Positions 8,076 through 40,773 are shown, numbered from the stretch's first letter. The stretch: DNA of 45,498 bases from a virus (IMGVR_UViG_2711768044_000004), one strand, 5' to 3'. Numbers and translations are program-made. Notes: a model not told the origin generated them from the sequence alone.

Positions 8076-8732
8076 TCATCCCCGACCAATAACTACCGCC
8101 TGCCCGTCTCCGCCTTCATCACGGGTGCTGATGTCCTGGGATATCCGCCGCGACCCCACAAGCATCTCACCATAAGGCACCGGCATCGGGTTACCCTGGG
8201 CAATCATGTTGTCCAGTGAGGAGAAATACGTGTTCTGCTTACCATTATCAGCACTGTTGTATTCCGGTGTTTTCGGTTTCGGTGCCAGCATCTGCGCCAC
8301 ACCGCCAATCATCATTGCCACACCGAATTTCATCATTCCCGCACCGAATGCCGACAGGGTACCTGCACTGAAGTAACTGATGACGGCCCCGGCTACCGTC
8401 AGCACGGCCCCTGCCACAACCTGAAAGACGCCGCCACTTTTCGCGCCTTCAGTCCTGGGAACGAGATGAATGACATCACCGTCACGCAGTGACTCATGCA
8501 GTCGTGCATGGAGCACCTGCTCTGACGTATCCCTCCCGGCAATGCGTAACTGATACCAGCCTGAAGAGAGCATCTGCCGGAACCCTGGCAACTGAACCGA
8601 CAGTGCCCTGATGGCTTCAGCAGCATCCTTTACCTGCAGCCTGAAGCGGCGGCCAAATCGTTGTAAATCCCCGTAAAGGCAGAAACACACCACCGGTGAT
8701 GCCGCCATATCGAATGTGTCCGTCGTTGCCAT
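8076..8732 (-). CDS. I: Tail assembly protein I
   Basis: 218 aa; position and size as in lambda; hydrophobic Gly/Ala-rich central segment. Confidence 0.8.
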   Translation of the reverse strand: MATTDTFDMAASPVVCFCLYGDLQRFGRRFRLQVKDAAEAIRALSVQLPGFRQMLSSGWYQLRIAGRDTSEQVLHARLHESLRDGDVIHLVPRTEGAKSGGVFQVVAGAVLTVAGAVISYFSAGTLSAFGAGMMKFGVAMMIGGVAQMLAPKPKTPEYNSADNGKQNTYFSSLDNMIAQGNPMPVPYGEMLVGSRRISQDISTRDEGGDGQAVVIGRG

Positions 8733-23084: not shown

Positions 23085-23552
23085 TTATTTCATACACTGA
23101 GTGCGGATATATTCCTGCGCCCCTTCCAGTTGCTTCTGCATCGTTATCAGCCGGTCTCTGAGGGTGAAATAATGCCGTTGAGCTGTGTCTGCCAGTCGGG
23201 GGCGGGCTGCATTATCCACGCTGGCGGTGCCGGTGGTTTTATCTGTGGTGGACACACAGGTGGCGTTGACGCGCAGGCTGCGGCGACCAGCGGCAACATC
23301 AGCGCGCAGAGTTTCATTTTCAGCTTTCGCATCGGCTAACTCCTTCGTGTATTTTGCATCGAGTGCAGCAACATCACGCTGGCGCTGCTGCATGTCAGTA
23401 ATGGTGGCGTTCGCCAGCTTCAGTTCACTGGCTTTTTTATCGCGCTGCGCTTTGTAGGTAATGGCGTTATCCCGGTAGTGGTCTGTTGCCAGCCACAGCG
23501 CACCGCAGGCCACCAGGAGGACAACTGCCACTCCGGCTAAGATACGATTCAT
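23085..23552 (-). CDS. Rz: Inner-membrane spanin Rz
   Basis: 155 aa; N-terminal membrane anchor, coiled-coil body, strong resemblance to lambda Rz (..[16 protein letters not shown]..). Confidence 0.9.
23147..23332 (-). CDS. Rz1: Outer-membrane lipoprotein spanin Rz1, embedded in Rz in the +1 frame
   Basis: 61 aa; lipobox-like LVAAAC and Pro-rich ...[27 protein letters not shown] as in lambda Rz1. Confidence 0.85.
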
Positions 23553-24082
23553 TCATCAATTCCCCAGCACGCCAGCGCACTTTCCTGGTCACGCCGCGAC
23601 ACCTGCCCGTAACAGTTATTTGAGCGGTTCCGGCAGTCTTTACCGCCGTCATATATCCAGCGACGGATTTCAGCACATGCACCTTTCCGGTCTCCGGCGT
23701 TCAGTTTCCGGTAAAACGTTGAGGTGAAGCATTTCGACGGCCCGATGTTGTACGGACAGAATGACGCGATGCCCGCTTTCTGCTGTTCAGTCAGTGGCAC
23801 TTTGATGTTTTTCTCCACCCATGCCAGCGCCTTATCCCGTTCGATGGCGTTCACTCGGTCGCATTTTTCCTTCGTCAGCTTCATGCCGGGGACTACAGGT
23901 CTGCCATCCACCCGGGTGGCACCACGGCAGATAGTCCATATACCTGCGCCATCACGGTATGCAGTAGTGTGGTTGCCTTCTTTTTCATCCAGAAACTGGT
24001 CAAGGATTTCAGGCGCAGAAGCCCCTGCGGAAATCAGTGCCAGAACGGCAGCCGACAGGCCGTATTTGATTTTTGCGTTCAT
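23549..24082 (-). CDS. Signal-anchor-release (SAR) endolysin, T4-lysozyme fold (GH24)
   Basis: 177 aa; weakly hydrophobic Gly/Ala-rich N-terminal segment followed by a lysozyme-like domain, as in phage 21 R. Confidence 0.8.
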
Positions 24083-24194: not shown

Positions 24195-24454
24195 TGGATT
24201 ATCCAAATCTACCAAAACAAACTTTTGCTGATTTAATCGCACTCAGGCAAGCTGTCGTAGCTCTAATCAACTTGTTGCCGGATAATGAAAAGGAATTCGT
24301 TAAAACAATTCTTAACAGAACTGCCGCCGATTTTTCATCATTCCCACTGACAGATGACCTTGCGGACCTTCCTGAATTAATTGCAGAGTCCTCCATTAAG
24401 CTTACTGAAGAGATTTACTCTCCTCAAAAATCTTCACAAAATTCCTGCGAGTAA
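24195..24454 (+). CDS. Hypothetical 86-aa protein on the strand opposite to the late genes (possible moron)
   Basis: ATG preceded by AGAGG ribosome-binding site; lies in a locally AT-rich island; no recognisable homology. Confidence 0.35.
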
Positions 24455-24605
24455 CTTCAATACAATAATCGTAAAACGCTGCAAACTGCTCATCGCGGCG
24501 TTTTTTTTCATCTTCGGAAGGAATCTGCACCGACAATTTTTTATTCAGTTCAGCAATTTCATTTTCCAGGCGACTTATGCGCCGATTCATTTCTTCAGGG
24601 TTCAT
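24402..24605 (-). CDS. Hypothetical 67-aa coiled-coil protein translationally coupled to the holin
   Basis: ATG 4 nt after the holin stop with a GGGGAG ribosome-binding site; overlaps the 3' end of the opposite-strand ORF. Confidence 0.4.
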   Translation of the reverse strand: MNPEEMNRRISRLENEIAELNKKLSVQIPSEDEKKRRDEQFAAFYDYCIEVTRRNFVKIFEESKSLQ

Positions 24606-24608
24606 CGT

Positions 24609-24821
24609 CTACTCTCCCCGCGCCGACTTACGCCGGTCTTCTTTAATTTTGAAATACAGGTTCGTCAGGTATGTCAGCAGACCAAACAGCAGGCTCCCCA
24701 GCACGCCTATCGCCGTCCACTGTGAAGGCGTCACCTTATCCAGCAACTGAAACAGCCAGTAACCCGTTCCCACCGCCGATGAACCATAGGACACACCTGT
24801 TGCCAGTTTATCCATCTTCAT
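24609..24821 (-). CDS. Phage-21-type pinholin with dual-start motif (Met-Lys-Met)
   Basis: [70 protein letters not shown] closely resembles my recollection of S21; GGAG ribosome-binding site upstream. Confidence 0.8.
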
Positions 24822-24886
24822 AATCCCCGCTCCGTAACACTCCCGCCTGATGACGGGAGCCACGTTTTCCTGCAACACAGGGATGC

Positions 24887-25270
24887 TTATGGCAAAGGCT
24901 GCGCTTCCGCCATACCCTCGCTCCCCGCAGTACCATTGTCTGTCGCTTCACCGCCTGTCGTGGTGGCAGTGCCACTATGCGCCTCTGCTCCTGAAGTATC
25001 CGTTCCCGGCTCCGGTGATGCTCCCGTGCCTGCGGTGGACGCAGCAGCCGCATTTTCAGTTACCGCAGGTTTTTCCTGCGTCTCCGCCACACCAGTATCA
25101 CCTGGCGTCGTCGCCGTCAGACCGGCAAGTGCCACTCTGACTTCCTCATCAATCTGTTTGCTGATGATTTGTCTTACCTGTGCTTCCACAACATTCAGCA
25201 CCACCTGTGCTGACAGCGCCTGTTTCAGTACCTCTGTCGTGACAAGTCCTGTGGTTTTCACTTCTGCCAT
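24887..25270 (-). CDS. Hypothetical protein with a structured N-terminus and a Thr/Gly/Ala/Glu-rich low-complexity tail
   Basis: 127-aa ORF in the late operon orientation; no recognised domain. Confidence 0.45.
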
Positions 25271-25304
25271 AAACTCGTTCCTCTCTTAAACAAAACCCCC
25301 GCCG

Positions 25305-25487
25305 TTATGGCAGTGGCTGGTTAACTGACTGCATCGTGGATGATGATGCGTATTTAACTTTCTCTGCCGCTGCATCATCAATTTTGCGGCGGACATAATT
25401 ACGTATTACCTTATATCCGCCACTCACCAGATATAACGCACACACCACCGTGCAGAAATACAATAAAATAAGCTGTAAAAATGTCAT
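25305..25487 (-). CDS. Small membrane protein (60 aa, one predicted transmembrane helix)
   Basis: ATG with strong GGGAGGG ribosome-binding site 5 nt upstream; hydrophobic N-terminus followed by a basic segment. Confidence 0.55.
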   Translation of the reverse strand: MTFLQLILLYFCTVVCALYLVSGGYKVIRNYVRRKIDDAAAEKVKYASSSTMQSVNQPLP

Positions 25488-25572
25488 TATCCCTCCCAGT
25501 TATTGATATGGTGTTGACATCGTTAATACCTGTTGGTTAAAAAGGCGTCCGTAATTTTTGCATTGGATATGA

Positions 25573-25614
25573 CGTCATTTGCCGCCGGTTTCTTGTTTTC
25601 CCTTTCCCGGCGGC
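25573..25614 (+). terminator. Plus-strand intrinsic terminator (8-bp GC stem plus T7)
   Basis: gccgccgg ... ccggcggc followed by attttttt on the plus strand; a TTGACA -35-like hexamer lies about 60 nt upstream on the same strand. Confidence 0.45.
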
Positions 25615-25629
25615 ATTTTTTTATCCTGC

Positions 25630-27570
25630 TTACGCGTTATTCACTTCCACCAAAATGCTGTCAATCAGTACCGGATACGTTGCATTACTGGTGATATCGG
25701 TCAGGCGTAACTTGTCTGCCGCAAAAGAACCGACAGGTGACTGAGACAGCATGAACGGTTCCTCGTCCTTACCATCAATCACCGGCGTCACCTGAATGCT
25801 GTTATTACCGGCAAAACGGAATGCCAGCGTATGCCACTCGTTATTAAATGCACCGAATGAACCCAGCTTCGTGTTCTGGTCTGGATTCCCCTTGTGATAC
25901 ATCACGTTAAGGTCTGTGGCATCGCTCTGAACGTAAAACGATGCCAGCAGGTTATGACCGGCATTACCTTCCAGTGTGACGCCCTGAGGCAGCGAAGAAA
26001 CCGGCCAGTACAGCGCCAGTGCGTACTGATTAGCCGTAAGCGCGCCATCAAGTTTAAAACGGCAGCTGACAAGGCCACCTTTTTCCAGCAGGTCGGCACC
26101 ATTACCGGCATCATGCTGCATAAACCATGACTTTCCGGTCTGTTTTGTCAGCTTCAGCGCCTTGCCCCCGCTGGCACCGGCATCATCCACAATAGCGGCA
26201 CTACCGCCTTCTGCCCCCCAGCCCTGTGGCGTCAGTGCTCCGCCTGACTCCGATGCACGGTAAGAAAACAGCGTCGTCATTGATTTCCCGTCCGTTGACG
26301 GTGTTGATGGCGTGCCAGTGGATGGCTTCTCATCCGGTGGTGTCACAGCCTGTCCACCCATAACTTCAGCCGTGCGTCCCGCATGGAGCAGAATGGCTGA
26401 GGACAGACGGTCAGAAATGATGCCCCTGCGTGCCCATGAGCTGAAATGGCTGTCACGCTGTGTGGAGACAAAACTGCCCTGGGTACGGGATGCCGCACCG
26501 TAATACCCGACAGCCACAATATCCGGGTCTTCCGCCGGAGCATTCGTTGGCGTGTTCTGTCCATTCTCATCCGTCAGGAACGGCACAAAGAAAATATTCT
26601 GTGCGGTCAGATTTTTATATGCGCCATAGACTGTTTCATACTGCGTGGCATACGTGTTTTTCCAGTAATACGTGGTATCACCACAAATCCACGGCACCGT
26701 GGCAGCATTTCCACTCACGCACTGCGCTGCAAGTGGAGACAGGTCGGTTCTGAACTGCTGAACCATGGCTGTGAATAAACCATTATGCTGCTGACTTCCT
26801 GAAGCAAGGTCTGCCTCTCCCTGCATCCATACCACAGCCAGTAATCTGTTTTTCTGGTTCTTCTCCAGCGCCGCTCTGGTGCGGCTGAGCAGGTCCTGAT
26901 ACAGGGGTTTACCGGCTCCCCAGCGTGAAGAATCAGCGGAAGCACCGCTGGCCTCACTGAATGAGCCGTCATCCCCGGTGGTGAATGCCGAACCACCACG
27001 ACAGCAGGGAACCAGAAGTATCCCGGCATTCTGCGGAATATAAGGCAGCAGTTTTTTGGCAATATGCAGCCCCTGACCGACACAACCATACTGCCCTTTA
27101 CTCAGGTCAGCTTTAGGGTGGTTTATCCCGCTCATGTCCTGCACATCATGCAGGCAGTGGTCTGCCGGAATGACATCATTATAAGAACAGGCTTCGCCAC
27201 CCGGCGTTACCGTACTGCGGCGTGACAGTTGCTTAATGCGCGGCTCTGTGCGGTCAAATGAATCCGGTAACGGAAGCCCTTCACCGTAGGCCATGCCATT
27301 TGACTGCCCGGCGAGTACCACCACGTAGTAATAGTCAGGTGCACCAGAGGTTATTGTGGTCTGTGAACCATCACCGTCATCAGGAACTTCAACAGGAATC
27401 CTGACTTCACCTTCTGCGGCAACAGCCTGAATAAACTTCATCCCGTTATCGTCATACGAAGTAAACGGCGAACCATATGGCTGCCACCCTTCACTTATTT
27501 TTTCTGACAGCTTTTTTTGCAGTTCATCACCGCTACTGGCAGAAACCAGATCGTAATGTTTAAACGCCAT
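25630..27570 (-). CDS. Prophage-type sialate O-acetylesterase (NanS-p-like, SGNH/DUF303 esterase)
   Basis: 646 aa from the ATG with a GGAGG ribosome-binding site; GQSNG esterase motif near the N-terminus; occupies the position this gene family holds downstream of stx in Shiga-toxin phages. Confidence 0.7.
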   Translation of the reverse strand: MAFKHYDLVSASSGDELQKKLSEKISEGWQPYGSPFTSYDDNGMKFIQAVAAEGEVRIPVEVPDDGDGSQTTITSGAPDYYYVVVLAGQSNGMAYGEGLPLPDSFDRTEPRIKQLSRRSTVTPGGEACSYNDVIPADHCLHDVQDMSGINHPKADLSKGQYGCVGQGLHIAKKLLPYIPQNAGILLVPCCRGGSAFTTGDDGSFSEASGASADSSRWGAGKPLYQDLLSRTRAALEKNQKNRLLAVVWMQGEADLASGSQQHNGLFTAMVQQFRTDLSPLAAQCVSGNAATVPWICGDTTYYWKNTYATQYETVYGAYKNLTAQNIFFVPFLTDENGQNTPTNAPAEDPDIVAVGYYGAASRTQGSFVSTQRDSHFSSWARRGIISDRLSSAILLHAGRTAEVMGGQAVTPPDEKPSTGTPSTPSTDGKSMTTLFSYRASESGGALTPQGWGAEGGSAAIVDDAGASGGKALKLTKQTGKSWFMQHDAGNGADLLEKGGLVSCRFKLDGALTANQYALALYWPVSSLPQGVTLEGNAGHNLLASFYVQSDATDLNVMYHKGNPDQNTKLGSFGAFNNEWHTLAFRFAGNNSIQVTPVIDGKDEEPFMLSQSPVGSFAADKLRLTDITSNATYPVLIDSILVEVNNA

Positions 27571-27767
27571 TATTCCTCCCCTTGCCGGGATTATCCTGAA
27601 CAGTTCGGCTGCACGGAGATTCAAAGAAGATAACTGCAGCCCACAAAACGAAAAAGGCCACGCAGTTGCGCAGCCTTATAAGAGATGGTAAAAATCAAAA
27701 AAATAATAACGAAAATATCTTGTTTATATTCATGCGACCTGCCCGTACCCACTATGGGCATTTTTCC

Positions 27768-27794
27768 CATAAAAAAGCCCCTCCGGAGAGGGGC
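27768..27794 (-). terminator. Strong intrinsic terminator between the tRNA cluster and the esterase gene
   Basis: Minus strand GCCCCUC-UCCG-GAGGGGC followed by UUUUUUAU. Confidence 0.5.
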
Positions 27795-28061
27795 TGGTAT
27801 ACGCATTCATTTCCATCATCTGCATGGTGCCGGGTGCCTCCCGGTGAGTTCAGTATCAGCACCTGAATCCGCGATTATCCCATATACCTACTCGCTGATT
27901 GCCCCTCCGCACAGGGGGATTCACCATGCAAAACTTTTTTAACAACTCTCCGTCAACCAGACAATCATCAACTGCCTGAATTGTGAGGCATTTAACATTT
28001 CACTGTCCGGTGTCTTTCCTGTAATAAAAAGCCCGCAAAAGCGAGCCAGGGAAAATAAGTG

Positions 28062-28138
28062 TGGCGCGTTGTACTGGATTCGAACCAGTGGCCGATTGCT
28101 TAGAAGGCAATTGCTCTGTCCGGCTGAGCTAACAACGC
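28062..28138 (-). tRNA. tRNA-Arg, anticodon UCU (reads AGA)
   Basis: Hand-folded cloverleaf: acceptor GCGTTGT, D-arm GCTC/GAGC, anticodon loop CTTCTAA, T-loop GGTTCGAATCC, 3' CCA. Confidence 0.75.
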
Positions 28139-28141
28139 TGA

Positions 28142-28218
28142 ATACCGATAATGGACCGCCATCGGGGACCCGCCCCCCGCGCAACCAGCTTCGAAGGCTG
28201 GCGCTCTGTCCTGATGAG
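28142..28218 (-). tRNA. tRNA-like gene, apparent anticodon UCG (Arg) with a non-canonical T-loop; possibly degenerate
   Basis: Acceptor CCGCCAT/ATGGCGG and D-arm and anticodon stems pair, but the T-arm is CGGGG-GGCGGGT-CCCCG rather than the usual TTCRANY loop. Confidence 0.45.
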
Positions 28219-28225
28219 CTAATGG

Positions 28226-28301
28226 CGGTATGTGATGGTGGCCCTTGCTGGATTTGAACCAGCGACCTGGCGATTATGAGTCGCTCGCTCTCACCACTGA
28301 G
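28226..28301 (-). tRNA. tRNA with CAU anticodon (Met or lysidine-modified Ile2 type)
   Basis: Hand-folded cloverleaf: acceptor GGCCCTT, anticodon loop CTCATAA, T-loop GGTTCAAATCC, 3' CCA. Confidence 0.75.
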
Positions 28302-28360
28302 CTAAAGGGCCGGGAGCAGAATAATAATGGTGCGTAATTAATTCTGCAATCTCATCCGTT

Positions 28361-29410
28361 TCAAACGATTAAATCCTGAACTTCCCTGACTGTCTGCTCA
28401 AAACGTCCGGTCTCCAGCTCAACACCAATTGCACGACGCCCAAGCTCCATAGCCGCCTTTATGGTTGAGCCAGAACCCATGAAGAAATCCGCCACCATGT
28501 CACCAGGACGACTGCTCGCGCTGATTATCTGCTGCAGCATTTCTGCCGGTTTTTCGCACGGATGTTTCCCGGGATAGAACTGCACCGGTTTATGTGTCCA
28601 CACATCCGTGTACGGCACCTGCGCCGTCACGCCAAAATACCGCCGCAGATGCTTATATTCACTCTGCAGTTCCGCATACTGCCGGTTCAGTGAAGTATAC
28701 GTCTCCAGCAGCTGGTGGTGGGGCTTTTCCAGTTCACCCCGCTGATGCTTCTCTTCTGCCACCCTGGCAAACAGTGCCTGTAATTTCAGATAATCGCTTT
28801 CGTTCGGCAACTGCCACTGACTGGCACTGAACCAGTGCGACACCATGTTTTTCTTTCCTGTGGCATCTGCAATCTGTTTTGCCGTTATCCCCAGGGCAGC
28901 GCGCGCATCACGAAAGTAAGCAATCAGCGGGGTCATCACATGCTGTTTCAGTTCCCTGCCCTTCGCCTCATACCCGGCATCTTTCGGACGATACGGCCCC
29001 TGATAATGTTCCGCGAACAGAATGCGCTCTGTGGCGGGGAAATACGCCCGCAGGCTTTCCTTGTTGCATCCGTTCCAGCGTCCGGACGGCTTCGCCCAGA
29101 TAATATGGTTCAGCACACTGAAGCGTTCACGCATCATGATTTCGATATCAGATGCCAGGCGATGACCACAGAACAGGTAAAGACTTCCGGCAGGTTTCAG
29201 CACCCGCCAGAACTGCGCCAGACACTGGTCCAGCCACTTCAGGTAATCATCGTCGCCCTTCCACTGGTTATCCCAGCCCTCAGGCTTCACTTTAAAGTAC
29301 GGCGGGTCCGTGACTATCAGGTCAACAGAATTTTCGGGTAACGACCGGATAAATTCCAGGCAGTCGGCGTTGATTAACTCACAACTGGATATTTTTACAG
29401 TATTAAGCAT
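28361..29410 (-). CDS. Orphan DNA N6-adenine methyltransferase
   Basis: 349 aa; DPPY motif IV (IVTDPPYF) near the N-terminus and a C-terminal FxGSGST AdoMet-binding motif; no adjacent restriction enzyme. Confidence 0.8.
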   Translation of the reverse strand: MLNTVKISSCELINADCLEFIRSLPENSVDLIVTDPPYFKVKPEGWDNQWKGDDDYLKWLDQCLAQFWRVLKPAGSLYLFCGHRLASDIEIMMRERFSVLNHIIWAKPSGRWNGCNKESLRAYFPATERILFAEHYQGPYRPKDAGYEAKGRELKQHVMTPLIAYFRDARAALGITAKQIADATGKKNMVSHWFSASQWQLPNESDYLKLQALFARVAEEKHQRGELEKPHHQLLETYTSLNRQYAELQSEYKHLRRYFGVTAQVPYTDVWTHKPVQFYPGKHPCEKPAEMLQQIISASSRPGDMVADFFMGSGSTIKAAMELGRRAIGVELETGRFEQTVREVQDLIV

Positions 29411-29546
29411 GGATCATTAAGCCTGTCTCTGATAGGCTCATTCTGCTTTTGCGCAAAGCAGTGGGCCTGAGGTTTGCTTGTGAACCCAACGCATGAGCAG
29501 ATGGCTGGTGGGTGCCCCTAACACCCACCAGCCGCCCATTTACCAC

Positions 29547-29574
29547 AAATAAAAAAGCCTTCACTGCGGAAGGC
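29547..29574 (-). terminator. Intrinsic terminator after the small late ORF
   Basis: Minus strand GCCTTC-CGCAGT-GAAGGC followed by UUUUUUAUUU. Confidence 0.5.
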
Positions 29575-29758
29575 GTCTGTAACAACCGAACTGATAGTCT
29601 GCCAGACCCGCCATAACCAGCTGGGTCAGTATTAACTGGCAGCGTTCGCGTGAAAGGTAAGTATTCTGCGCTATCTCCCCGACTGTCGCCGGTTCGGTAA
29701 CGCTTAATTCATTAAACACCACTCTGGCGGTTTCTGTCATATCCTGCTGTTTTAGCAT
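29561..29758 (-). CDS. Hypothetical 65-aa protein (start taken at the internal ATG)
   Basis: The longer ORF in the track would begin with a GTG inside the terminator U-run; the internal ATG has an AAGGG ribosome-binding site. Confidence 0.4.
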   Translation of the reverse strand: MLKQQDMTETARVVFNELSVTEPATVGEIAQNTYLSRERCQLILTQLVMAGLADYQFGCYRRLPQ

Positions 29759-29881
29759 GTCTTTTTCCCTTTTCCGGTTAACGTGACACACCAATAACTC
29801 TTGTCGAAAAAGCCAGCAAGCTGAAAGAACGGTATTAATAACCACCAGCGAATTTATTGCGCTACTGTATATCGCGGACAC

Positions 29882-29902
29882 AAAAAAACCACCTTCCGGT
29901 GG
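29882..29902 (-). terminator. tR'-like terminator directly downstream of Q
   Basis: Minus strand CCACC-GGAA-GGUGG followed by UUUUUUUG, about 80 nt after the Q stop. Confidence 0.5.
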
Positions 29903-29982
29903 CTTCCTTTTGCGAAAAAAACTTGCGTTTCGCCTCGCGATACAGCTTTGCGAAGCTTATACGGATTGAAGCAGTTTATTGA
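29903..29982 (-). promoter_or_regulatory. Candidate late promoter and Q-utilisation region (TATAAG -10-like hexamer, several TTGCG repeats)
   Basis: Position between Q and the tR'-like terminator, as for lambda pR' and its short leader RNA; promoter hexamers are weak. Confidence 0.3.
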
Positions 29983-30546
29983 TCAGTTTGCAACATTTTT
30001 CTCTGTAACAAAAGCCATGCGCATGGGGGCATATAACATAAATTCAGATACCCCCAACCATTGATCAATTCGGCGTCTGCACGTAACCAACGACCAATCA
30101 GGATGATCTGCATTTAACCTTTCGGCCATTTTCAGTTTGCTCATTCCCCGTCCTTCGTACCTTTGCCGGAGAACATTGATTAGCCCGGGATATTCCCCAA
30201 GCACCTTACTGATAACGCGATCAATAATCAACGCCTCTGTGTCTGTACAATGTGACAACCAGCTCTTCTGCTTTCCTCTTGTCATATCCCGAAAAAATGC
30301 CTCAAGTTCCGGTTTTTCCAGCCCGGATTTCTTCATTCTGCGCAAAACCTCATTAACTGCTGTTTTCGTCAGCTTTTTCGAAACCAGTAACCGGTTAAAC
30401 ATATTTCCGGATTTACCCCCACCGATATACGACCACCGCCCCCACATCCGTAATTTCCCCTGGATCCAGACTGCTTCCAGCGTGTTCAGGCGTAAATGTT
30501 CGCCGCTTTTGCCTGTAATTTCCGGATATATCATATTTACGCTCAC
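29983..30546 (-). CDS. Late-gene antiterminator Q (Shiga-toxin-phage-like family)
   Basis: 187 aa; position after rusA and before the late promoter and terminator; W-G-x-W motif (LRMWGRWS) reminiscent of Q proteins from Stx phages (from memory). Confidence 0.6.
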   Translation of the reverse strand: MSVNMIYPEITGKSGEHLRLNTLEAVWIQGKLRMWGRWSYIGGGKSGNMFNRLLVSKKLTKTAVNEVLRRMKKSGLEKPELEAFFRDMTRGKQKSWLSHCTDTEALIIDRVISKVLGEYPGLINVLRQRYEGRGMSKLKMAERLNADHPDWSLVTCRRRIDQWLGVSEFMLYAPMRMAFVTEKNVAN

Positions 30547-30902
30547 TCACTCTCAATTTTGTAAATCTTCACACCCAGCCGTCCACCAGATACTGGCTGA
30601 CCACGTACAATATTGATTTCATCAAACTGCTCATCGTCCATTAACAGTCCTGCATGCGTCAGCGCATCCAGCGGCGCTTTCAGGATATTGTCCAGGTCGC
30701 GACGGCGCTTATCCGGTGGCTCTGCCATAATCCTGATTACCAGCCTTCCGGACAGGCTTAATTTCAGCCGCTGCTGGCGAACAATAAGCGCCACAGCCCG
30801 GCGATAACGCTTTCCCTCCTCCGAGATAAAATATGTGCTGCCACGGCGTCGCCAGTAAGTGTTCACCGTCGGCGGGTAAGGTAAAACCAAATCTATGAGC
30901 AT
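30543..30902 (-). CDS. rusA: Holliday junction resolvase RusA
   Basis: 119 aa; conserved ...PPTVNTYW... and ...DKRRRDLDNILKAPLDALTHAG... segments typical of RusA. Confidence 0.85.
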   Translation of the reverse strand: MLIDLVLPYPPTVNTYWRRRGSTYFISEEGKRYRRAVALIVRQQRLKLSLSGRLVIRIMAEPPDKRRRDLDNILKAPLDALTHAGLLMDDEQFDEINIVRGQPVSGGRLGVKIYKIESE

Positions 30903-32411: not shown

Positions 32412-32567
32412 TTACTCCTCAGGTTCGTAGACTGTGAAGACAGCGACCTCCGTCTGGCCGGTTCGGATTCGTACCTCGCAGAGGTCTTTCCTCGTTACCA
32501 GTGCCGTCACTATGACGGTTAAACAGATGACGATCAGGGCGATTAACATCGCCTTTTGCTGCTTCAT
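32412..32567 (-). CDS. hokD: Hok-family type I toxin (51 aa), apparently identical or near-identical to K-12 HokD/RelF
   Basis: MKQQKAMLIALIVICLTVIVTALVTRKDLCEVRIRTGQTEVAVFTVYEPEE matches my recollection of HokD. Confidence 0.85.
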   Translation of the reverse strand: MKQQKAMLIALIVICLTVIVTALVTRKDLCEVRIRTGQTEVAVFTVYEPEE

Positions 32568-32624
32568 AGCCTGCTTCTCCTTGCCTTTCGGCACGTAAGA
32601 GGCTAACCTACGCGTGCAAGTCAT
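32412..32624 (-). CDS. mok-like overlapping reading frame that would couple hok translation
   Basis: In-frame upstream extension of hok (70-aa ORF) as in hok/mok/sok loci. Confidence 0.45.
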   Translation of the reverse strand: MTCTRRLASYVPKGKEKQAMKQQKAMLIALIVICLTVIVTALVTRKDLCEVRIRTGQTEVAVFTVYEPEE

Positions 32625-32834
32625 AGATATGGCCTCAGATTAATGTTAAGCGTCTTGCCGGACGCGTAATGTTAACTGGGGCTTTTCTCTATCTGCCTTT
32701 TGGTGTTCATGCCTGAGACAGATAGCCCCAAGCACCCGCAGCGATTCTACAAAAACAAACTATTATTTTCTATCCCCCTTCACAGTCTCATTTCTGACTA
32801 TACTCATCGTTCACACAACACAAAAGGTATAAAA

Positions 32835-40720: not shown

Positions 40721-40773
40721 TTTCTGGTGACGTTTGGCGGTATCAGTTTTACTCCGTGACTGCTCTGCCGCCG
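40721..40773 (+). ncRNA. dicF: DicF small RNA (translational inhibitor of ftsZ in K-12)
   Basis: tttctggtgacgtttggcggtatcagttttactccgtgactgctctgccgcc followed by a T-run; matches the DicF sequence as I remember it apart from about one base at the 3' end. Confidence 0.75.

Follow-up and report, generated by a model that had tools for sequence, protein, structure and literature searches.

The late region of IMGVR_UViG_2711768044_000004, a viral DNA of 45,498 nucleotides (nt) that was analysed at its full length and is called the window below, raises the question of what a locus that has the gene layout of the Shiga toxin (Stx)-converting phages and no toxin genes represents. The original prediction, which was made for positions 25,630 to 30,546, had left three answers: a toxin-free relative of the Stx phages, their precursor or a derivative that had lost the toxin genes. 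Only the first of these was backed by our analysis, because no scar was seen, both flanks were nearest to toxin-free sequences and the unoccupied junction proved to be widespread. We consider it highly probable that the locus is the leader of the late operon in a mosaic lambdoid prophage of Escherichia coli without toxin genes, i.e., in a toxin-free relative of the Stx phages and not a recent product of toxin loss. The window, of 45.5 kb, is a lambdoid prophage whose head and tail genes are of the siphovirus type, and the region with its Q antiterminator, methyltransferase, transfer RNA (tRNA), esterase and lysis genes is where the late genes of an ordinary lambda-like prophage of E. coli are controlled. 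Between the terminator of the argO tRNA gene and the gene of the small RNA (sRNA) STnc100 there is a moron slot, which holds stx1AB or stx2AB in the Stx phages and a 23-nt spacer here.

When the locus was compared by megablast with 50,697 phage records, the matches were mostly Stx-converting phages. Positions 29856-28026 of the window were 94.2% identical to the Stx2a phage Stx2_12E129_yecE, in which this block stops 55 nt before stx2A; the homology restarts at window position 27986, 45 nt after stx2B, and continues through the esterase gene at ~69%. Between the two blocks there are 39 bp in the window, the 23-nt spacer among them, versus 1341 bp that carry stx2AB in the phage. The stx operon falls exactly at this 39-bp joint, which bears out the claim that the arrangement is the one found around stxAB in Stx phages. 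The proposed kinship of the tRNA and esterase genes with those of the Stx phages held as well, the tRNA block being 94% identical and the esterase and sRNA side being homologous to the DNA downstream of both stx1B and stx2B. The toxin genes themselves were absent from the whole window: in a tblastn search with Stx1A/B and Stx2A/B, the best match (E = 0.014) was a chance match of 10 residues. This confirms that there is no stxA/stxB-like open reading frame (ORF) between the tRNA genes and the esterase gene, and the window lacks the stxA and stxB genes downstream of Q/pR' by which an Stx phage is defined.

The edges of the slot could be placed in a multiple alignment of the window, Stx2a, Stx2e (P27) and Stx1 (VT1-Sakai) sequences and four toxin-free loci. 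The argO tRNA, the hairpin GGCTCGCTTTTGCGGGC and a T-run were common to all of the aligned loci, the hairpin of this terminator being kept in the Stx2a, Stx2e and toxin-free relatives; Stx2a and Stx2e diverge right after the T-run, with the stx2 promoter/leader. On the other side, the downstream flank of Stx1 rejoins at AAATGTTAAAT, at approximately window position 28001, and that of Stx2a a few bases further, both just upstream of STnc100. The stx1 and stx2 cassettes end inside the same ~25-nt interval upstream of STnc100, and stx2 starts exactly at the T-run of the argO terminator; on a reading that has little probability, this coincidence of the cassette edges would suggest a recombination hotspot or site-directed capture and not the random insertion of a moron. 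The 23-nt spacer TACAGGAAAGACACCGGACAGTG was identical in E. coli 2017.17.03CC, SHP24 and an O157:H7 prophage, and there was none in the Nil3-type prophages. The site has two common unoccupied configurations, one with the spacer, as in the window, and one that is spacer-less (Nil3-like). The spacer, which is identical among prophages whose flanks have diverged to ~87%, might be functional, e.g., in the promoter region of STnc100.

A clean internal deletion of stx2AB between the argO terminator and STnc100 in a descendant of an Stx2 phage would account for a left flank that is 94% identical to the Stx2a phages and for a joint that lies exactly at the site of the stx cassette. A simple deletion, however, would leave either cassette sequence or nothing, and the 23-nt spacer is absent from the Stx phages and has no significant similarity to their cassettes: in local alignments with the stx2a, stx1 and stx2e cassettes, 85, 409 and 217 of the 500 shuffles, respectively, scored at least as high as the spacer, and no stx remnant was detectable. 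Moreover, identity to the Stx2a phage is just ~69% in the right flank, each side is closer to toxin-free relatives and many diverged prophages without toxin genes have the very same spacer, which makes such a deletion very improbable. A likeness of the spacer to the ribosome-binding/start region of stx2A, which was noticed by eye and considered as a deletion scar, was rejected as due to chance on the same shuffle test. Alignment of the gap with the Stx late regions showed homology on both sides for Stx2 and on the right side for Stx1, and no scar was detectable.

The distribution of the unoccupied junction was assessed using a 201-bp junction query and a 1.1-kb methylase-tRNA-esterase query, which were counted when at least 80% was covered in one place. 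The junction was found in 1068 of the 5426 complete E. coli genomes (about a fifth), with an identity from ~75% to 100%, and the longer query was covered in 367 genomes. An exact 33-mer across the spacer was present in 54 IMG/VR contigs, the flanks of which were 71% to 100% identical to the window and none of which carried stx; among species-representative genomes (one per species), it was found in one other species, Escherichia sp. MOD1-EC7003. The junction was also unbroken in ten phage records, including Lahn2, Nil3, TL-2011a and PPwrbA_EH2201. A literature search on phages Lahn2 and Nil3 returned nothing relevant. Phage TL-2011a, which came from an O103:H25 strain, was 96% identical at the junction, and the same serotype was studied in work that described a phage without stx that is related in part to an Stx2 phage (PMC3293862), the text of which does not contain the name TL-2011a. 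Toxin-free lambdoid prophages with the late layout of the Stx phages, phage tRNAs, moron-site sRNAs and nanS-p are already well documented and very common in E. coli. The rarity of this toxin-free layout, which the original prediction implied, finds no support in view of its spread in E. coli and of the literature (PMC4104026, PMC8065619, PMC10462455, PMC3293862).

Within this distribution, the nearest relatives, E. coli 2017.17.03CC (99.5% near the junction) and SHP24 (100% over the junction), are both toxin-free; of the window's right half, at most 66% was covered by any complete E. coli genome. A toxin-free relative with a commonly unoccupied slot is favoured because the nearest relatives on both sides are toxin-free. 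In a neighbour-joining tree of the left flank that was based on gap-free distances, the window grouped with the toxin-free locus L055 (96.8%), the Stx2a phages being 94.5% identical, and stx-positive and toxin-free sequences were interleaved. This interleaving also speaks for another explanation, in which homologous recombination in the flanking modules (methylase, tRNAs, STnc100, nanS-p) led to the loss of stx, or to the gain of Stx2a-like DNA, and an empty slot was imported. The exchange of the Q module between two blocks that are shared with Stx2_EH1910 points in the same direction, as does E. coli 2017.17.03CC, whose identity of 99.5% near the junction drops to 90% over the whole left flank, with a different Q. 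Additionally, in the toxin-free locus L056, a left flank that is 98.3% identical to the Stx2a phage LC567842 is joined by a hybrid ileZ/argO tRNA to the unoccupied junction, which shows that recombination within conserved modules reshuffles the region. However, the window shows no sign of an stx-bearing parent, for each of its flanks toxin-free prophages are at least as close as any Stx phage, and an exchange could have run in either direction; this origin of the empty slot seems quite unlikely. On the reading as a toxin-free relative, the module from behind tR' to the tRNAs is shared with the Stx2a phages through modular recombination, and the Q/pR'/tR' cassette is a different one, of the DUF1133 type.

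The slot is intact and has the edges that it has in the Stx phages, the argO terminator and STnc100 sequences in the case of stx2 and the right-hand one of these in the case of stx1, and the unoccupied sites are numerous and diverse, which could also indicate that the locus is a direct precursor of the Stx phages that accepted a captured stx operon. Against this, the allele of the window has diverged from the Stx2a phages by ~5.5% on the left and ~31% on the right, the Stx phages lack the 23-nt spacer, a second, spacer-less type of unoccupied site (Nil3-like) exists and no Stx phage record has a Q module of this type. It is scarcely credible that this prophage was itself the precursor; at most, the class of unoccupied sites could be ancestral. 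The window shows one of these sites in a well-preserved state; that they were the ancestral acceptors of captured toxin genes is improbable in its own right.

Several points weigh against the toxin-free origin that we prefer. The genome counts tolerate small insertions of up to ~600 bp within a joined place, and the 54 IMG/VR loci are mute on the conservation of the spacer, since they were picked by the spacer itself. Neither pR' nor qut was located, and the first hairpin lies just ~80 nt past the Q stop codon. Transcription, Q-dependent readthrough, the positions of the promoters and the expression of the sRNAs are all inferred. Moreover, the history of a slot is not readable with certainty in mosaic DNA, where nothing would remain to show that a more distant ancestor had carried stx and had given it up in an exchange with a toxin-free phage.

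The Q gene, the terminator, the methyltransferase, the three tRNA genes, the esterase and the lysis genes were all found on the minus strand where the original prediction had placed them, in the order RusA, Q, tR'-like terminator, small ORF, methyltransferase, three tRNAs, a 491-bp gap, NanS-p-type esterase and lysis cassette. The features of the locus are as follows:
30543-30902, minus strand: RusA Holliday-junction resolvase, the last nin-region gene before Q (PF05866, 62.5 bits)
29983-30546, minus strand: Q-type late antiterminator, DUF1133 allele, 187 aa (PF06576, 348 bits; PF06530, 31.9 bits)
29882-29902, minus strand: tR'-like intrinsic terminator, CCACC-GGAA-GGTGG followed by T7 (sequence, fold and hairpin listing)
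29561-29758, minus strand: conserved 65-aa late-leader ORF, with a second terminator-like hairpin (29574-29557) at its end
28361-29410, minus strand: N6/N4 DNA methyltransferase (PF01555, 151 bits)
28236-28311, minus strand: tRNA with the anticodon CAU, ileZ homologue (ARAGORN, Rfam)
28152-28228, minus strand: tRNA-Arg with the anticodon UCG, argN homologue with an altered T-loop (ARAGORN; Rfam, 45 bits)
28062-28138, minus strand: tRNA-Arg with the anticodon UCU, argO homologue (ARAGORN, Rfam)
28030-28047, minus strand: terminator hairpin directly 3' of argO, the left edge of the cargo slot (hairpin listing)
28002-28024, minus strand: unoccupied cargo slot with the 23-nt spacer TACAGGAAAGACACCGGACAGTG (pairwise and multiple alignments)
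27765-27957, minus strand: STnc100-family sRNA gene with its own terminator at 27795-27776 (Rfam RF02076, 138.2 bits)
27700-27765, plus strand: tentative divergent AgvB/AsxR-like sRNA, convergent with STnc100 (hairpin 27740-27760 and T-run)
27654-27677, minus strand: third terminator-like hairpin of the gap, upstream of the esterase gene (hairpin listing)
25630-27570, minus strand: NanS-p-type sialate O-acetylesterase, 646 aa (PF08410 DUF1737, PF03629 SASA, PF20350 DUF6645)
25305-25487, minus strand: small DUF1378 gene (PF07125)
24887-25270, minus strand: small DUF826 gene (PF05696, weak)
24609-24878, minus strand: P21-type holin (PF04971)
23549-24082, minus strand: lysozyme (PF00959)
23085-23552, minus strand: Rz with embedded Rz1 (PF03245)

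The holin, lysozyme and Rz genes all lie on the minus strand downstream of Q, as in the lysis cassette of a lambdoid late operon. The gene directly after RusA belongs to the Q family, as its PF06530 (Phage_antitermQ) score of 31.9 bits exceeds the cut-off of 26 bits and PF06576 scores 348 bits. Its best matches among the phage records were non-Stx E. coli phages (up to 75.6% amino acid identity), Rac/Rac-SA53 (67-69%) and Klebsiella phages, and its relatives are annotated there as antitermination protein Q; none of the 40 matching records was an Stx phage. A DUF1133-type Q was present in 17 of the toxin-free loci that were fetched (77-100% amino acid identity). Similarity to the Q of Stx2_12E129, Stx2_EH1910 and VT1-Sakai was not significant (blastp E >= 0.02), and the DUF1133-type allele of the window is not of a type found in Stx phage records, such as the Q933- or Q21-like ones. 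The Q/pR'/tR' module matches none of the Stx-phage types that were examined, which sets this part of the locus apart from the likeness to the Stx phages that had been proposed. A comparison with Stx2_EH1910 localised the difference, as the rusA side (~92% nucleotide identity for the rusA gene of this Stx2a phage) and the DNA from 29859 onward (94%) are shared and the differing part is window 30560-29860 only. Q, the promoter region and the first terminator therefore appear to be one exchangeable cassette, which in turn supports reading the hairpin with U7 at 29902-29882, ~80 nt beyond the Q stop codon, as tR'; the homology with the Stx2a phages begins just downstream of it, at 29856-29859. An overlap of the window with 'quuQ' of Stx2_EH1910 was rejected as evidence for a shared Q, since it comes from rusA and the DNA behind tR', and the Q genes are unrelated. 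A promoter scan found no confident pR' site and qut was likewise not located; both are presumed to lie between 29982 and 29903. The 65-aa leader ORF is called as a gene of 65 aa in the source assembly, and equivalent 198-nt ORFs are annotated in Stx2a, Stx2d and Stx2e phages. The methyltransferase gene lies inside the 94%-identical block that is common to the window and the Stx2a phages.

On the model of lambda and Stx-phage biology, Q would modify RNA polymerase at pR' after induction, and transcription would then pass tR' and the hairpins at 29574-29557, 28047-28030, 27795-27776 and 27677-27654. Such readthrough would express the small ORF, the DNA methyltransferase, the tRNAs of the ileZ, argN and argO type, NanS-p and the lysis genes, and the codons read by the tRNAs would be AUA and AGA/AGG, which are fairly frequent in the phage genes. 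The small genes of STnc100, and possibly of a convergent AgvB-like sRNA, would stand apart in the interval from the tRNAs to nanS-p.

The three tRNA genes, which had been described as a CAU, UCG-like and UCU set corresponding to ileZ, argN and argO, are homologous to the genes annotated under these names in Stx2a phage records (alignment with Stx2a_1447), which bears out this identity. The CAU tRNA was called Met by ARAGORN and is called Ile by PGAP in the relatives. The UCG tRNA had an Rfam score of 45 bits versus 70-72 for the neighbouring two. Its argN-type T-loop reads GGCGGGT, without the usual T54/T55, versus TTCGAGC/TTCAAGT in the Stx2a and O157:H7 copies, and the tRNA is possibly impaired. 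The aberrant T-loop and the fact that argN was undetectable in 18 of the 51 related toxin-free loci suggest decay of this gene, and argN looks to be under stepwise decay while ileZ and argO remain intact. Intermediate T-loops (TTCGGGT, GTCGGGT and CTCGGGT) were seen in related toxin-free loci. In the 27 phage ORFs, the codons AUA, AGA and AGG occur 6.6, 3.7 and 5.7 times per 1000, respectively; the value for AGG is well above the mean of the E. coli host. The retention of these tRNAs where there is no stx argues for a general service to the phage genes over a specific one to the toxin. Two further observations concern this cluster. In Stx2_12E129_yecE (locus L001, 5632-5708), the anticodon of the middle tRNA is TCT and not TCG, which gives this Stx2a phage two tRNA-Arg(UCU) genes. 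In L056 (IMGVR_UViG_2534681674_000028, 8440-8510), the hybrid tRNA consists of an ileZ 5' part and an argO 3' part, which points to recombination between phage tRNA genes.

The distance of ~490 bp that had been given between the tRNA genes and the esterase gene was accurate, at 491 bp (27571-28061), with the last tRNA ending at 28062 and the esterase ATG at 27570. This stretch is occupied by an STnc100 sRNA gene and three terminator-like hairpins. The STnc100 match was full length (138.2 bits; model positions 1-206 of 206; gathering score of RF02076, 47 bits). In the two Stx phages that were checked, the gene follows stx2B at a distance of 75 nt and stx1B at one of 79 nt, and it was also present, at the same relative position, in all of the toxin-free loci that were checked. 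The position after stx2B agrees with the 75 nt downstream of stx2 that were reported previously (PMC12370729). For the Sakai prophages Sp3, Sp4, Sp5, Sp9, Sp10, Sp11, Sp15 and Sp17, Tree et al. described convergent sRNAs at the pR' moron site, situated between the moron and a phage ORF that is conserved (PMC4104026). In the toxin-free O157:H7 locus L007, which served as a positive control, Rfam detected AgvB (96.5 bits) convergent with STnc100, and in window 24400-30100 there was no Rfam match to AgvB/AsxR (RF02702/RF02703) at E <= 1. A bona fide AgvB/AsxR in the gap was therefore rejected, as all of the Rfam thresholds were missed by a method that detects AgvB in O157:H7. The plus strand at ~27700-27765 aligns partially with the Rfam-confirmed AgvB of O157:H7; its 5' part differs, it ends in a hairpin and T-run and its fold has a z-score of -2.55. 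This candidate is tentatively a divergent relative of AgvB, and it may be an uncharacterised anti-sRNA variant. The hairpin at 27654-27677 is kept in the Stx1, Stx2a and toxin-free relatives. A 2026 preprint places STnc100/PasD upstream and PasA/PasC downstream of the esterase gene (10.64898/2026.05.13.724894). As an observation on the same gene, phage Nil3 (locus L008, 5966-6337) has an STnc100 whose 5' half is toxin-free-like and whose 3' half, with the downstream spacer, is nearly identical to the Stx1 flank (VT1-Sakai, L005), which places a mosaic breakpoint within the gene.

The product of 25630-27570 is, by its predicted sequence, a NanS-p-type sialate O-acetylesterase. The claim of a NanS-p-like esterase was borne out by its Pfam domains, which are those of NanS-p (an N-terminal DUF1737, the SASA/NanS catalytic domain and a C-terminal, lectin-like DUF6645), by matches to the PDB entries 3pt5 (NanS, E 1e-116) and 6yp6 (NanS-p C-domain, E 1.5e-94) and by a full-length amino acid identity of 65% to NanS-p/yjhS of an Stx2a phage and retention of the GQSN motif. 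The same protein is encoded residue for residue in the NCBI assemblies GCA_001268265.1 and GCA_001269205.1. An exact search with the 187-aa Q gave no match, since its gene is annotated there with a later start. Neu5,9Ac2 esterase activity was reported for the NanS-p alleles of EDL933 and O104:H4 (PMC8065619), and nanS-p is reported from prophages with and without stx, a genome of enterohaemorrhagic E. coli having several alleles (PMC8065619, PMC10462455). According to a 2026 preprint, the phi24B homologue is a processed capsid-decorating protein that is attached via DUF1737 (10.64898/2026.04.10.717836), and on this account the esterase gene may be a structural or accessory phage gene and not cargo. 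Elsewhere in the window, a hok/sok-type toxin-antitoxin pair lies on the minus strand at 32412-32737, upstream of the DUF968/RusA/Q genes (Rfam sok, 111.5 bits, 32562-32737, overlapping a 70-aa Hok-like ORF, 32412-32624), and a DicF sRNA gene (Rfam, 72.5 bits) lies on the plus strand at 40722-40773, in the early/immunity part of the prophage.

The Q-methylase-ileZ/argN/argO-nanS-p layout alone is no sign of a former or cryptic Stx phage. Because toxin-free prophages share long, nearly identical flanks with the Stx phages, they would be natural recombination partners for the movement of stx between backbones and Q alleles. The Q allele is reported to have an effect on toxin expression. The mapped cassette boundaries could be of use in a wider survey of how the slot gained and lost its content.

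Among the known systems, the Stx2a phages of the 933W/Sp5-like type (Stx2_12E129_yecE, LC567842; Stx2_EH1910, LC567834; Stx2a_1447, AP012536) have the same gene order as the window, i.e., Q, terminator, 65-aa ORF, methylase, ileZ-argN-argO, slot, STnc100, nanS-p, DUF1378/DUF826 and holin/lysis. The window differs from them in lacking stxA/stxB and in having the 23-nt spacer in place of the 1.34-kb cassette, and also in its unrelated Q/pR'/tR' module, the altered T-loop of argN and a right flank of ~69% identity. With the toxin-free lambdoid prophages of E. coli it shares the same tRNA-terminator-(spacer)-STnc100-nanS-p junction, at 99.5-100% identity for 2017.17.03CC/SHP24, 96% for Lahn2, TL-2011a and PPwrbA and 87% for O157:H7 (Sp/CP-933-type). 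These prophages differ from the window in their other Q alleles (ydfT-type, Q933-like), and some lack the methylase or argN; the Nil3-type sites, unlike the window, are without a spacer of 23-27 nt, and the O157:H7 locus has a bona fide AgvB where the window has a divergent look-alike only. A methylase-[cargo]-nanS-p-holin layout like that of the window is found in PPyecE_EH1910 (L069, 4112-5710; LC567835), in which a plasmid-stabilisation/transcriptional-regulator (toxin-antitoxin-like) pair and a TciA/TerB-like gene lie between the methylase and nanS-p, with no tRNAs. Finally, of the prophages with the type II heat-labile enterotoxin (LT-II), Rac-SA53 has a DUF1133-type Q that is 67% identical to that of the window, and in SerU-LTIIb the match to this Q is partial (67% identity over 46% of its length) and the methylase is shared, with a nucleotide identity of 83%; we take the LT-II genes of Rac-SA53 and SerU-LTIIb to occupy this same region.

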